A stretch of DNA of 64,000 nucleotides from Myxococcales bacterium (GTDB lineage Bacteria; Myxococcota_A; Polyangia; Palsa-1104; JAEUJZ01): the NCBI GenBank assembly GCA_016794465.1, contig JAEUKA010000024.1:7511-71510 (forward strand). Reading direction: 5' to 3'. The notes under the pieces are model-generated. The model saw only the letters and a program-made list of their open reading frames with translations, had not been told where the DNA came from and did no database searches. How positions within the stretch are numbered: the stretch's first letter is position 1; each line of letters starts with the position of its first letter. Positions 13,421 through 21,683 of this stretch are shown piece after piece. The position numbers and the translations under genes were made by a program.

Positions 13421-13807
13421 ATGTCGTTCCTCAACCGCTTTCTCCCAGAAAAACCTCAAGACGACGAGTTCCGGAGTGTCGTCCGGAATCTCCTGTATCT
13501 ACTCAACTCACGCCGCGGATTCGGATCACTTTTATGCAGCTTCGGAGCTGCCGACTACCTTCGCGACTTGAGTGGACGGACGACGGCACAAACACTGCTT
13601 CGTGAAATCACAGATACCATTCAGATCTACGAACCGCGGCTGCGGGTCCTCAGTCTGAAGACGGTAGGACGTGACAGTGCGTTACGACTCTTTATCGAGC
13701 TGCGCGGGACACTCCTCCTAAACTACTGGGGCGTTCCCTGTCGGCTTCTCATCCTTTTCCACATGCCAACGGGCGCCGTGACCATTGAGGGGAGCGATGG
13801 ATCGTAA
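13421..13807 (+). CDS. tssE: T6SS baseplate protein TssE (gp25-like)
   Basis: 128 aa; VRNLLYLLNSRRG gp25/TssE-like block. Confidence 0.7.
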   Translation: MSFLNRFLPEKPQDDEFRSVVRNLLYLLNSRRGFGSLLCSFGAADYLRDLSGRTTAQTLLREITDTIQIYEPRLRVLSLKTVGRDSALRLFIELRGTLLLNYWGVPCRLLILFHMPTGAVTIEGSDGS

Positions 13808-19800: not shown

Positions 19801-21683
19801 TGCTAAGATCGAGTGGTACGTCCTTCAACGAGATCCGCAGACCAGAGCTTCTCACGGATCCAGCTACTCCCGTTGCTCCAGCGTCCCCAGGTTTGCCTGA
19901 ATTCGATCCTCTTGCAGATCCTCTGGTAAGCTCTGGCTCGGTTTCTGTTGGGACTCCTGTCATGACTCAGAGCAGCCCCTCTAGCAGCCCCTCTGAAGGC
20001 CCCTTGGGCAGCACAGATGGTGATACTCCCATCTCAGGTTCAGCATCTGGAGCCGGAGCCAAGGCAAGCCCAGATCCTGGCGCTGACGCTGAACAGGATC
20101 CCAAGGAACCTTTCGACGGAAGCGGGGCCCCAGCCGCAGGACAGGACAGTTCTTTGGGCACAGAGTCGACAACGCCACAGGCATCATCAGCACAGAATCC
20201 ACAACGAACGCCTCCGACCTCTCCACAGGCTACGGGACCAAGCATTCCACGGGACACAAGTCTGAACCCAGGGAAGACCAAATCTCAGACCTCTGCACGT
20301 AGTCCCATCAACGATGAGTTGGCGGCGTTAGAGGCAGTGCGTCAGGGTGTCCGCAGCGGCACGCTATCCAATGGACCAGAGCTCCTACGAGCGCTCCTTG
20401 CTTCCGTGCTTTCGGAAGATGATGCCGGGTTCCCTCCAGATTTATTTGAAAAAAATCATCACGCGCTAGAAGAGCTGTTGCGTGCGGACCCCAAGATGGC
20501 TCGGCTGCTGGCCATTGGAGGAATCTCTGCAACCTTGGGTCTGCTCCCCCCCAGCCTGTCCGAGCTTGCCAAGCGCGTCTCAAAGATCGCGGTTCAGTAC
20601 AGTCCATCTGCAACAGAGCTACTACACAAAGCCCAGAAGCTCGAACTGACGTCCCGCAAGCGTCCCGACTCAAATCAGAAGACGGACACGCTGGGATTGC
20701 CGACCTCTCTTCCGGAGAGCGAGTCTTCTGATCTTGAGTCGTGGCTCCGGATTACTGATCAAACGGAAGAGCCTGACTCGACTCTTAGACTTGGAGGCAC
20801 AGAAAATCCCCCAGGGCTGCCGCAACTCCCGGCAACGGATCAGCGGGAGTCGTCTCCACCTATCGATCTGGATGATGACCTTGAATTATCTGAGATGGAT
20901 GATGACTCCGCAGATCCGTCCCACTCATCTGACCCATCAGACGAGCTGGGCGCAGACCTGAAGCTCGCCGATCCATCGAGCATTCCAGCGCTGGGCGCAG
21001 AGAATCAGGTCTACCTCACCAAATTGGGAATAGACCTCGCACAGCTGCGGAAAGCACTGCAACTTCTGCGCGGACTGGAGACGGAACGTGGTTTATTTCT
21101 GGCCCAGTCTCCTCCAGTCGTAGAGGCAAAAATGAAGGTCATTGCCGAGCTTCGCTCGGGATTACGGAGCCTGACGGCCTCGACATCACAGATCTCGAGT
21201 AGACAGATTCATGATTTCGCACCGACGATTCTCGGGGCTAGTTTGGTGCGCCACCTGGGAGTCCTTCCTCCGGACATTACTGCACCGGATTTGGAGGAGG
21301 CTCAGCGGATCATCTTTGCGGATGAGCAGACCCGATCGCGACTGATCGATGCACGGCTCGCAGCGGATTCGGAAAAGCTTCCCCAGACGCTACGACCGGT
21401 AGCCCTGAGCCTGCGCAGGCTGTGGCAGAAACGGACCCGTGATGGCAGCCTCGTGCAGGAGCCGGGCGATTCTCCTTCACAGCAATTCACCCCCGAACAG
21501 GGCTCCAGTTTCGCCAACAGCTTCCCTGAAAGTGAGTCCGACTTCTGGGCACGGTTGCTTCGGTTTCTGCGCTTGATTGCCACAGTTGCATCTACTCTTT
21601 TTGCTGGCCCACTGCACGAAGCGCTAGCCACGGATGCGGAAGATACCGAGTCCGTGGAAGATGCGGAAGACGAGTCCGAATGA
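13797..21683 (+). CDS. Giant (~2,630 aa) T6SS-embedded protein: VgrG-like region (gp5/base_V-like KERVLVQLYYDRSE block plus beta-helical repeats around residues 900-1250) followed by ~1,400 aa of low-complexity S/P/T/A/Q/E/D-rich tail with two His-rich and two poly-Gly tracts
   Basis: Single uninterrupted ORF overlapping tssE end and tssF start (ATGA); AVLIGKQGVTIETEVAGAKSIF and MTLSSLSNMTVQTPSSLNLTAMNGVTLNALTVL resemble VgrG spike beta-helix repeats; HHRKHKHPHGHKHHHKRNHGDQH and HHRHSKAHHQHSKAHHQKAHK tracts. Confidence 0.5.
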   Translation: MDRKSFGKEPPTLDEELAGETPRFHEKLGFVFEIVQVVPLMVAPGPPPPPVVLTEMDNIELATKPPNRPPPGAVQTGSPIMPPFLGQLPPIKIEGHDITSLSVDMATHGFTGRMRFRVSETKLLGDVKDKDKVAKAFRSQNILMFKLCIRPEHSDLRGLAPLTPVMVPQVVTQIPVPVVVPVNESIPLELQLLQQLPAELALELQQQRTLIQQQLLVVQQQLLVNQQERMAIMQESHPPAGSVETPQNLQILAKQRQLDLAANAKKQQELIKQQQRYIEELSSLANPPNNSALLAALQNIAPPGVLPPKLDPVIAPIPAIVGTPTLLEPGISPNGPLVPIEMLLTGVITSHTVSEHTSYEASDIIVSFREYCIEFGDPAQALWKEHFPIALYTNSSVSDVIKKNANLLINIKVKSSQLSQTQDQIFLSLNKQNRQAERASFYDWLIWRLDQTDHTLSYDYSQNIYQVFERPKRPKPFQVFAADIAKIITTRPLGRFYQETLMNDSARIATTQPILNLLALSPLRQDRWFHTPTPLEFATEYAKRFASFKQPSPSFVLYFKRFPSRPFPPGVGIDFHLDPIDFPNHKFVIPKDAKKTNRVTRMQLQIETTESDVLPRFKGRSTGMFRCSLGVHLQSGRDAEPRLPTYTQPSYPMEVEGIVYTMIGMPGTQVWENQTDLLTGQQYYVIQLPVFGCQQVKTPFVPNQQPGQFFFPAYRKERVLVQLYYDRSELARYLDWRPMNTLPSQIQGNQLMLGQDFTNGAKHTLIYGGDVPEYIIQRQRYSSVQFIRFYQSGIEQKSVVLTPKVDLAIQRATLAASQALEIQCAGGAGAIAGGGGGGGGGSGGGAKAEAKSTTRARAKRVSGKVQAKTSVHATAAVAAVSTDFTHSKQIPKPLHRTPSKAMPLVQNVGAARTMMRHAEQAQAESMGVDVAVAERPRDAGPKDLPGRKSHSAGKHSHADRGAGKKPPPHKTKGRGGGGGGGGNREELPPAPRPGTPTEGHPEQPMNCRFGMDSGSGTALEMESPAGDAKHAVLIGKQGVTIETEVAGAKSIFEQHGDAISIRCREFTIDADNIRVRSQTHSSYQSLGHMTLSSLSNMTVQTPSSLNLTAMNGVTLNALTVLINALRTIRLLGLTGGIGTFAAGPGVHSFGAEISSTGLQNTMTGVTTNLHGATVKIGPPPMSSGPAASSGSDSESSAGSVANSSFDSKTEQGTDKASGSPASPQAPSNGDPETDSKQHAAEVFPFDPEHGFAGLGGRIHHRKHKHPHGHKHHHKRNHGDQHRPEEEHTQSTLPISPFDKPGGVPNSSVDPTDESVPTTAEGSAQPDHRAQHHESSGHSSESTSLGQTSEEPPSSDASMDSQDLKPKGPPSARNFVPSGQRDALTPMPPRPHEPPRPVRTDPQDPEQTPALKQTVSDSTSAVEQAAARIGASLFGPVDRDGPVARQKPGSLRALATEIAKIEAIVSACSSGPSSSSTISSAVKPPSARPSDQDATKGANQNPRAEYTSTKPPSQVAGSDHTSVRYSVRTPPEDGTNPLQEAPHHHGSSRIPGATPPAGHSNSHHRHSKAHHQHSKAHHQKAHKIAHDPKPQTAATDPQVSAPETAQAPTAPARSSENQVNAGLLQAAGSPSAALRPTESGDAGAGGNHDRGLLQRGASAQSPFEVFRRLISLFSHMTWDGQTPLGMLHTFQSAAAAAPRPLAEMHELLLAFQQKSDHAAWAPSVDSEVPPEQLLSSLQQYLEELGRNLPAHGAATPPAAASTASSSNPDRQPEDSEPKPTKPQQPQSTEVPGLQAAMVSDLLSSLQSDSLDERINRDPSLIPTVLQATLAAQAGALTPELGAPLLVLAESILESRTDVAVLLALMGTAAQAGLLPSEIAPHAIAGQQLAVQSNLDLAELRAQVTQADTPGSTRDTKPSDGTNTNQRYQPLIDLALAAADNGFLPRSSALTIAENPGSGLLRLPELLAVREVLQYAARIVAGKPLPEPPAGPLVQIRRNTLISMLRSSGTSFNEIRRPELLTDPATPVAPASPGLPEFDPLADPLVSSGSVSVGTPVMTQSSPSSSPSEGPLGSTDGDTPISGSASGAGAKASPDPGADAEQDPKEPFDGSGAPAAGQDSSLGTESTTPQASSAQNPQRTPPTSPQATGPSIPRDTSLNPGKTKSQTSARSPINDELAALEAVRQGVRSGTLSNGPELLRALLASVLSEDDAGFPPDLFEKNHHALEELLRADPKMARLLAIGGISATLGLLPPSLSELAKRVSKIAVQYSPSATELLHKAQKLELTSRKRPDSNQKTDTLGLPTSLPESESSDLESWLRITDQTEEPDSTLRLGGTENPPGLPQLPATDQRESSPPIDLDDDLELSEMDDDSADPSHSSDPSDELGADLKLADPSSIPALGAENQVYLTKLGIDLAQLRKALQLLRGLETERGLFLAQSPPVVEAKMKVIAELRSGLRSLTASTSQISSRQIHDFAPTILGASLVRHLGVLPPDITAPDLEEAQRIIFADEQTRSRLIDARLAADSEKLPQTLRPVALSLRRLWQKRTRDGSLVQEPGDSPSQQFTPEQGSSFANSFPESESDFWARLLRFLRLIATVASTLFAGPLHEALATDAEDTESVEDAEDESE

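Follow-up and report, generated by a model that had tools for sequence, protein, structure and literature searches.

A PdpA-like hub, a needle and a long, largely disordered tail in one spike protein of a Francisella-like type VI secretion cluster from a Myxococcales bacterium

Type VI secretion system (T6SS) spikes are usually seen as compact VgrG trimers, optionally with a folded effector domain. In specialized ("evolved") VgrGs the effector domain sits at the C-terminus of the needle, as with the actin cross-linking domain of Vibrio cholerae VgrG1 and the peptidoglycan hydrolase of VgrG3, and these extensions are compact, folded enzymatic domains. Other VgrGs have C-terminal adaptor or cargo-binding extensions, transthyretin-like or helical and tens to ~150 residues long, which recruit specific effectors. 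Reviews from 2026 divide T6SSs into four subtypes, with subtype ii limited to Francisella (PMC13577199, PMC13584744). Here we describe a T6SS cluster in 64,000 nucleotides from a Myxococcales bacterium (assembly GCA_016794465.1, contig JAEUKA010000024.1, positions 7,511 to 71,510 of the forward strand; hereafter the window). Between tssE and tssF in this cluster lies a single giant open reading frame (ORF) encoding 2,628 residues, and the protein that it encodes is our subject.

We concluded that the giant protein is a fusion of three parts, hub, needle and tail, that occur as separate adjacent genes in relatives. Its hub resembles Francisella PdpA, its needle was identified by sequence profile as the small VgrG type, and its tail consists of nearly neutral, indel-prone spacers that link conserved alpha-helical islands under purifying selection. 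Full-text literature searches, with incomplete coverage of the literature, found no description of this lineage, of a Myxococcota PdpA homolog, or of a disordered VgrG tail.

A PdpA-like hub and a needle joined in one chain

The ORF and the parts of the protein up to the end of the needle are as follows (aa, residue numbers of the giant).

13797..21683, + strand: giant ORF, fused hub-needle-tail spike protein, 2,628 aa plus stop (stop codon 21681-21683)
13797..14276, + strand: first part of the gp27-like hub (aa 1-160), including a Pro-rich lineage-specific insertion (aa 39-88)
14277..14807, + strand: lineage-specific hub insertion (aa 161-337), with a V/P-rich stretch, two long Q/L helices (188-235, 246-285) and a Pro-rich stretch
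14808..16271, + strand: hub core and gp5-like oligonucleotide/oligosaccharide-binding (OB) region (aa 338-825), with RVLVQLYYDRSE at aa 718
16272..16796, + strand: inter-domain linker (aa 826-1000; 175 aa, net charge +16), Ala/Lys/Arg/His-rich, with both poly-Gly tracts
16797..17324, + strand: predicted small-VgrG-type beta-helical needle (aa 1001-1176)

Residues 337-825, used as query against 5.8 billion proteins, returned only ten relatives, which were 500-656 aa long and had no Pfam domain. Alignment of the giant with these ten relatives (alignment A1) showed that the hub starts at residue 1 and that the giant has two insertions of its own, at aa 39-88 and ~160-337; the second was missing in all 10 of the 10 homologs. 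The A1 profile, run with hmmsearch against PDB sequences, had a sole match to Francisella PdpA (6u9e_A, E = 7.7e-9), over ~100 residues, and sequence identity between the hub and PdpA was 9-16%. An AlphaFold2 (AF2) model of aa 1-825 had structured blocks at a predicted local distance difference test score (pLDDT) of 70-92, whereas the insertions and the C-terminal end fell below 50. Strands within aa 1-160 reached 77-92 outside the insertion, and the N-terminal helix was short (aa 13-18 only) in this single-chain model. A Foldseek search with the model placed PdpA first (E = 7.7e-16), followed by Salmonella VgrS, PVC/Afp spikes, T6SS VgrGs and Mu-type hubs. Neither Pfam nor NCBIfam gave a match to the full-length protein, and the Pfam VgrG and Phage_GPD models miss the hub. 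We concluded that aa 1-825 are a PdpA-like gp27/OB hub, in which a gp27-like fold is followed by a gp5-like OB region.

The larger hub insertion (aa 161-337) was conserved in P0011, a fully fused ortholog described below, with a ratio of nonsynonymous to synonymous substitution rates (dN/dS) of 0.085. Two other fused relatives, L086 and L088, have a shorter insertion at the same hub site, without the Q/L helices. Identity to P0011 was ~88% over the hub including both insertions (88% for aa 1-160), ~57% in the linker at aa 851-1000 and ~87% in the needle.

The needle was recognized through its relatives. Residues 1001-1176 matched the central part of a separate 463-aa gene product in the relative L002 (31% identity, E = 2e-21). 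A profile built from giant aa 1001-1180 and 20 relatives (A2) matched C-terminal beta-helices, those of Anabaena All3320 (1.5e-7) and the T6SS VgrG 8gra (4.7e-6), and also Francisella VgrG (6u9e_B, 1e-3) and the gp5/VgrG of a Streptomyces contractile injection system (2e-3). These profile matches indicate a C-terminal triple-stranded beta-helical needle of the small VgrG type.

A preliminary description of this DNA, made from the sequence alone, had proposed a VgrG-like spike with a gp5-like block at residues ~900-1250 and extreme low complexity elsewhere. The spike was borne out, in the form of a PdpA-like hub plus a small VgrG-type needle. The gp5-like motif RVLVQLYYDRSE is real, but it sits at aa 718 within the hub, and only the beta-helix at aa 1001-1176 falls in the range given. 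The low complexity did not extend to the N-terminal 825 residues, save for the insertions at aa 39-88 and ~160-337.

The open frame begins at TTG 13785 and ends at 21683 on the + strand. ATG 13797 is the likely start of the giant ORF, with a Shine-Dalgarno-like GAGGGGAG upstream and an N-terminal MxRKS shared by orthologs. The longest ORF in any alternative frame of the interval is at most 183 aa. A single uninterrupted ORF overlapping both neighbors had been described, and this was verified: the tssE TAA at 13805-13807 gives an 11-nt overlap with the 5' end of the giant ORF, and the giant stop and tssF start overlap as ATGA. The overlaps support the giant ORF as an integral, translationally coupled member of the T6SS operon. 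A scan for promoters and terminators within the operon gave no signal exceeding shuffled expectation.

A scan of one genome per species gave 80 related loci (L004-L083). These were mostly from Myxococcota (Corallococcus, Archangium, Cystobacter, Myxococcus, Pyxidicoccus, Hyalangium, Sorangium and Chondromyces), and the remainder came from Desulfobacter, Syntrophus and one Planctomycetota metagenome-assembled genome (MAG). Because no related locus exceeded 36% identity, the window's own species lies outside this collection. The gene order p200-tssK-tssE-hub-needle-tssF-dotU was conserved across the related loci. In ~45 of them a hub gene of 545-600 aa is accompanied by a separate needle gene of 173-208 aa with tssF directly after, and there is no tail. 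All split and fused arrangements were found in the closest clade, which consists of uncultured Myxococcales MAGs. Between tssE and tssF, the following genes were found.

L002 (metagenomic): hub 643 aa, needle 463 aa, low-complexity third gene 741 aa
L004: hub 704 aa, needle-tail 1,568 aa
L009: hub 691 aa, needle-tail 1,587 aa
L012: hub 650 aa, needle-tail 1,219 aa
L006: hub-needle 855 aa, with a tail of just 50 aa

The inter-domain linker of the giant stands at a gene boundary (stop and restart) in relatives. Within the closest clade, either a long low-complexity extension or a third gene was added to the needle gene, and loss of the intervening stops produced one 2,628-aa chain.

That its parts are separate genes in relatives might also suggest that the giant ORF is an assembly or sequencing artifact joining several genes. 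A close relative, L001 (ENA ERZ1714334 contig_4183), is full of frameshifts, which split its cluster into dozens of short ORFs and affect all genes; the most likely cause is indels left uncorrected in a long-read assembly, not pseudogenization. The same fusion was found elsewhere, however. A HMMER search with tail aa 1640-2628 against 1.84 billion representatives returned three proteins only. The best was P0011, a fully fused ortholog of 2,210 aa that is identical on an NCBI MAG contig (L084) and in an independent Logan assembly (L085); its locus has the same 11-nt tssE overlap, ATGA tssF overlap and neighbors. A metagenome scan added a fused giant of 2,159 aa (L091) and a contig (L090) with ~94% nucleotide identity to window 17122-25040, in which the tail is open from the contig start, over 1,450 codons, to the tssF ATGA. 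In L086 and L088, hub, linker, needle and tail are likewise fused, in ORFs of at least 1,156 aa whose contigs end inside the tail, and in-frame purifying selection was found on either side of each fusion junction. That is, because fused orthologs occur in independent assemblies, the artifact explanation is effectively refuted, and we give it almost no credence.

Islands and spacers in the tail

The 1,452 residues that follow the last needle strand are a C-terminal extension beyond the needle, with the following parts.

17325..18716, + strand: mostly disordered S/P/T/H-rich segment (aa 1177-1640), with both His tracts and small islands
17571-17627: His tract 1 (aa 1259-1277)
18480-18542: His tract 2 (aa 1562-1582)
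18717..19046, + strand: most conserved tail island (aa 1641-1750), helical (SPFEVFRRLISLFSHMTWDG...LLSSLQQYLEELGRNL)
19155..19796, + strand: 'GLLP' module (aa 1787-2000), an all-alpha helical-repeat domain with recurring AAxxG(L/F)LPxxL units
19797..20306, + strand: hypervariable S/P/G/T-rich linker (aa 2001-2170)
20307..20657, + strand: second, partial GLLP-type module (aa 2171-2287; independent E-value (i-E) 3.7e-7 at model positions 13-128)
20658..20996, + strand: acidic D/E/S-rich linker (aa 2288-2400), net charge -23
20997..21680, + strand: C-terminal helical region (aa 2401-2628), with a hydrophobic/amphipathic helix (~2583-2612) and then an acidic end

Comparison with P0011 showed alternating conserved and lost segments. 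The small islands in aa 1177-1640 (HGFAGLGG at 1247-1257, aa 1409-1466, and PHHHGSSRIPGA at ~1541-1556) were all conserved. Island 1641-1750 was ~93% identical to P0011, and 85% of it was invariant across three giants; AF2 predicted helices here, though with pLDDT below 50. Identity was ~70% for aa 1787-2000 and ~45% for aa 2171-2287. Residues 2440-2545 and the helix at ~2583-2612 were 35-55% conserved in P0011 and P0012, the latter having the same kind of ending immediately upstream of tssF. Between the islands, P0011 sequence was mostly deleted or unalignable: linker 2001-2170 was mostly deleted and linker 2288-2400 was missing. A three-way comparison that included L091 recovered the same islands, with 58-85% three-way identity.

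Rates of evolution followed this pattern. Against L084, where dS was saturated, dN/dS was 0.04 in the hub core, 0.08 in the needle, 0.06 (0.058) in island 1641-1750, 0.14 in the GLLP region and 0.18-0.33 in the other islands, and at least 0.35 in the linkers. The second GLLP-type module had a value of 0.2. Against L090, where dS was not saturated, the pooled islands gave 0.26, the pooled linkers 0.66 and TssF 0.18. The linkers within aa 1177-1640 reached 0.85-0.96, whereas island 1409-1466 in the same segment stood at 0.2; linker 2001-2170 gave 0.62 plus indels. Relative to the giant, the L090 tail had deletions of 39 aa and 25 aa, the 25-aa indel lying in linker 2288-2400.

Windows in which no more than 19% of the residues are hydrophobic make up ~61% of the tail, and the linkers had pLDDT below 50 within both AF2 models. 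The linkers therefore combine low hydrophobicity, low complexity, low model confidence and weak constraint, as expected of disordered sequence. The preliminary description had announced a disordered tail of ~1,400 aa closed by one structured C-terminal domain of ~200 aa. A long and largely disordered tail was found, but it is not uniform, and in place of a single terminal domain there are several conserved helical islands along its length.

One explanation for such a tail is that it is mostly non-functional, having grown by repeat expansion and drift at a C-terminus that tolerates both. Linker dN/dS of 0.85-0.96, large indels between close relatives and visible microsatellite and minisatellite origins are consistent with this, as are the tail lengths within the clade, from 0 to ~4.4 kb, and the lower G+C content at third codon positions (GC3) of the tail, 0.46-0.59 against 0.60-0.73 for hub and needle. 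But several islands are under purifying selection, with 58-85% identity across the three giants, and at least four lineages keep the frame open across 1,450 codons. Moreover, the GLLP module is confidently folded in the AF2 prediction and is also kept on TssE. We consider a mostly non-functional tail improbable.

The low-complexity tracts named in the preliminary description do exist, at residue numbers other than those given: the His tracts begin at aa 1259 and 1562 and the poly-Gly tracts at aa 833 and 975, and the Q/L segments are present. The coding sequence shows how some of them arose. His tract 2 is encoded by a 21-nt tandem unit present 2.4 times with 93% match (18480-18530), and poly-Gly tract 1 is a (GGC)11 microsatellite (16299-16332); slippage-type repeats generate protein low complexity in both. 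A metal-binding domain had been suggested for the tail. Two dense His tracts, which could bind Zn or Ni, are present, and both are kept, with substitutions, in the 94%-identical L090. Neither tract occurs in P0011 or L091, however; tract 2 is a recent 21-nt tandem duplication, and the surrounding linkers evolve at dN/dS ~0.9. Because the His tracts are missing from fused orthologs and have a slippage origin, we rejected a conserved metal-binding role, and we regard a metal-binding tail of any kind as very improbable.

A change in divergence was also seen along the tail. Against L090, dS jumped ~ten-fold at aa 2001-2545 (19797-21430), to 0.48-0.68; upstream it was 0.04-0.16, and for tssF it was 0.064. 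Such a jump points to a recombined or mosaic allele in the C-terminal third of the tail.

BLASTP of the tail against itself and against the tails of relatives found nothing, and phmmer among hand-cut tail modules gave hints of 12-13 bits only. The L004-type sister tails are rich in Gly, Ser, Met and Gln and contain repeats of the kind GQSMGQSM and SQNxQS. A motif, hPGLxPG(D/N)xxxhxxLh(D/E)xhxPP, occurs once per tail in ten relatives: at aa 42 of the third gene of L002, and at aa 503 (L004), 485 (L005), 829 (L006), 460 (L007), 465 (L009), 484 (L012), 484 (L013), 1048 (L086) and 1093 (L088). It makes up most of the 50-aa extension of L006, which is otherwise tail-less, and the giant matches it only partially (VPGLQAAMVSDLLSSLQSDSL; aa 1788-1812, 19158-19232). 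As a lead from sequence, it may serve as a conserved linear motif for binding a partner of the spike.

The GLLP module and a proposed role for the tail

A hidden Markov model (HMM) of the GLLP module found one full copy (336 bits) and one partial copy (aa ~2180-2295) in the giant; a third, degenerate unit in aa 2401-2628 did not reach significance (i-E 0.65). The AF2 model of the full module had pLDDT 80-95. The module was also found outside spike proteins. In P0013 (348 aa), the third match to the tail query, a TssE/gp25 domain is followed by an extension of ~200 aa; the whole of this extension aligns with giant aa 1790-2000 (30% identity), with an invariant AA.AGLLP core. A profile search gave four such TssE-GLLP fusions (P0013-P0016, 341-348 aa), with genes located as follows.

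L086, 2843-3889: TssE-GLLP gene
L087, 257-1303: TssE-GLLP gene
L088, 9526-10566: TssE-GLLP gene

These fusions occupy the tssE position, with a large ORF directly downstream where the contig is long enough, and in L086 and L088 that ORF is the giant fused spike. Copies of the module were found by the HMM in the tails of P0011, L091, L090, L089 and L001, and on TssE in L086-L088; there were none in L004-type tails, L002, L006 or the wider family. GLLP is a new ~200-aa all-alpha domain family, mounted on the spike tail or on the TssE C-terminus depending on lineage. The gp25/TssE protein belongs to the baseplate and stays behind upon firing. That GLLP occurs on this stationary subunit too is the strongest clue that the module functions at the baseplate before firing.

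We favor, with moderate confidence, the reading that the giant is the central spike of a divergent Francisella-like T6SS in which three genes have been fused, and that the tail islands are docking modules on a leash. By analogy with the solved PdpA-VgrG, gp27-gp5 and VgrG structures, three chains would trimerize; the hub would dock onto the inner tube inside the TssE/F/G/K baseplate, and the needle would face the membrane complex. The DUF4280 PAAR-like protein encoded downstream would probably cap the needle, again by analogy. The tail islands, chiefly aa 1641-1750 and GLLP, would be protein-protein docking modules with a role at the baseplate or near it, such as loading of the spike, recruitment of partners or cargo, or contact with subunits of the baseplate or of the membrane complex. 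A docking role is proposed because the tail has no enzymatic or toxin signature, because helical repeats are predicted, and because GLLP occurs also on TssE. The linkers would serve as a flexible leash: judged from geometry, the ~610 mostly disordered residues that separate GLLP from the needle tip could give the module access to sites around the baseplate. The His- and Gly-rich tracts would be slippage-generated filler rather than functional sites. Its covalent link to the needle tip means that the tail should leave the cell with the spike upon sheath contraction, unless it is processed first.

The departure of the tail with the spike also fits an effector of the evolved VgrG kind, fired into the target, where the islands would act by binding host or prey factors or by perturbing membranes. 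The tail is attached at the needle C-terminus, where effector domains of specialized VgrGs sit. Its C-terminal third has a dS of ~0.6 versus 0.05 against the 94%-identical strain, a mosaic pattern like that of variable effector regions; TM-like (transmembrane-like) segments occur in sister-clade tails, and an amphipathic/hydrophobic helix lies near the C-terminus. But the tail matched no toxin, enzyme or pore-former family in Pfam, NCBIfam, PDB sequence and fold searches, and a toxic or enzymatic domain was therefore not found in the extension. No obvious immunity gene is adjacent, tssF lying directly downstream. No TM-like helix was detected in the giant's own tail, and its best-defined module is found also on TssE, a non-secreted baseplate subunit. 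We judged an effector role unlikely, though of more than negligible probability.

Slightly better placed, yet still doubtful, is the view that the tail is purely a structural or assembly element (a plug, scaffold or built-in chaperone) that wraps or anchors the spike before firing and has no later role. In sister lineages GLLP is found now on TssE, now on the spike tail; the gene, placed between tssE and tssF, is translationally coupled to its two neighbors; and repeated fusion and fission with hub and needle argue for one physical complex. Island 1641-1750, with dN/dS 0.058, is constrained like core structural proteins (0.03-0.06). Against this view, ~45 loci, most of the wider family, have no tail, so that a tail is not a core requirement, and ~60% of the tail is nearly neutral. 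It also overlaps the docking reading, from which it differs mainly by denying a role after firing. A tape-measure-like protein was considered and rejected, since spike geometry would place the tail at the needle tip end and not on the tube-facing hub side.

Several observations weigh against the docking reading that we favor. The confidence of the hub model is moderate (mean pLDDT 60.7, from a 10-sequence alignment). An hhalign comparison of window-type with L004-type tails was not significant (E = 0.59); we do not claim tail homology across the clade, and the tail may not be one homologous entity there. Sister tails (L004, L005, L007, L009, L012 and L013, at ~aa 380-420) carry a TM-like segment, for example LLLCFPYGLAVAFSAYFAV, that the giant's tail lacks, which hints at membrane-active roles in those tails.

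More tentatively, the tail could be new spike equipment: a disordered leash of ~150 kDa per chain with new helical docking modules (GLLP and aa 1641-1750) that can be mounted on the fired spike or on stationary TssE. It would then mark a new step at the level of the baseplate, for instance capture of cargo, control of firing or coupling to the membrane complex, in a Francisella-like lineage widespread in Myxococcota and Desulfobacterota. Hub, needle and disordered passenger in all split and fused combinations act as a "Rosetta stone" for membership of one complex, and the alternation of GLLP between fired spike and stationary TssE offers a testable handle on communication among spike, baseplate and possibly cargo. 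As an extreme case of disordered sequence tolerated on a secretion projectile, the giant also bears on the carrying capacity of T6SSs. Hallmarks of the Francisella T6SS (IglE, PdpA, small VgrG and an IglG-type cap) occur in many cultivable Myxococcota such as Corallococcus, Archangium, Cystobacter and Sorangium, and these non-pathogenic, genetically tractable relatives could serve to study features of the Francisella virulence machine.

The cluster and its relation to known systems

The giant ORF is flanked upstream by tssK and tssE and downstream by tssF and dotU, and tssB, tssC, tssM, tssG and a DUF4280 gene are also in the cluster, which spans 4602-28721.

579-2030 and 3089-4540: two Ser/Thr kinases
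1810-2997: TPR protein
4602-8651: TssM/IcmF-like protein
8651-9127: IglE-type lipoprotein (IglE_N, E = 1.2e-21; NF041245, 2.8e-12)
9366-9911: TssB
9983-11470: TssC
11557-12159: 200-aa protein (p200) in the Hcp position, no match
12135-13409: TssK
13421..13807, + strand: tssE, gp25-like baseplate wedge (Pfam GPW_gp25, E = 6.9e-9; TIGR03357)
21680..23338, + strand: tssF (Pfam T6SS_TssF, E = 4.6e-17)
23335-24030: DotU/TssL
24483-26339: conserved 618-aa protein without family assignment
about 26336..26722, + strand: DUF4280 PAAR-like (IglG-family) gene (Pfam DUF4280, E = 2.7e-17)
26739-27788: ImpA_N-like (TssA-like) protein
27813-28721: TssG

The DUF4280 gene start at 26336 was taken from the orthologous ATGA junction in L084, which also holds an ortholog of this gene. 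The top PDB match of TssC was IglB (364 bits), with Pseudomonas aeruginosa TssC close behind (352 bits), and p200, the presumed Hcp/IglC, had zero matches among PDB sequences. No ClpV-like ORF was present among the annotated ORFs of the cluster.

Other features of the window were noted. The 618-aa protein (24483-26339) is kept beside the DUF4280, TssA-like and TssG genes in most related clusters, with tblastn matches in >40 loci, and is probably an uncharacterized core component of this T6SS lineage. The two Ser/Thr kinases and the TPR protein (579-4540) lie immediately upstream of tssM, and kinases flank the L002 and L084 clusters too; these genes may be a post-translational regulatory module of the T6SS. 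G+C content steps from ~0.57 (1-32 kb, with the T6SS cluster) to ~0.63 (33-64 kb) at a serine recombinase gene (31865-33043, minus strand), and the cluster may be on a horizontally acquired island. A tRNA-Ala(GGC) gene (55205-55278) adjoins a tyrosine integrase gene (55384-56496, minus strand), resembling an integration hotspot. Megablast against plasmids gave no match.

Among described systems the closest is Francisella PdpA with its small VgrG (PDB 6u9e/6u9f/6u9g). PdpA is the sole PDB sequence match and best structural match of the hub family, the needle profile matches Francisella VgrG, and most relatives keep the hub and the small (~173-208-aa) needle as separate genes. The subtype ii hallmarks, an IglE-type lipoprotein, a PdpA-type hub, a DUF4280 (IglG-type) PAAR-like protein and no dedicated ClpV gene, were all found in the cluster. 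In contrast to Francisella, the giant has hub and needle in one chain via a 175-aa linker, a 178-aa hub insertion with Q/L (coiled-coil) helices, and a needle that continues into a 1,450-aa tail. Here, unlike what is known of the Francisella island, tssE, tssK, tssF, tssG and the ImpA_N-like tssA are recognizable by general Pfam T6SS models, and the cluster may represent a sister or intermediate lineage and not subtype ii in the strict sense.

The giant resembles evolved VgrGs in having gp27-like, OB and beta-helix parts in one chain, with a C-terminal region past the needle tip that would travel with the spike. It differs in that the hub is PdpA-type and not a canonical VgrG, and in that the extension is ~60% low-complexity linker plus helical islands with no detectable catalytic family. 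The adaptor extensions of VgrGs share with it a non-enzymatic docking C-terminus, the role proposed here for the islands and GLLP. To our knowledge, no VgrG adaptor is a 1,450-aa multi-module disordered chain, and none has a module in common with TssE.

Lastly, we compared the giant with the hubs of phages T4 (gp27-gp5) and Mu (gp44-type). In phages and contractile injection systems, as among the loci described here, hub and needle are split in some cases and fused in others. The differences that we noted were the absence of a lysozyme domain, the lack of any tail extension in those systems, and a different biological context. Set beside all of these systems, and with its mechanism inferential, the architecture is that of a real, unusual spike with a new domain family.

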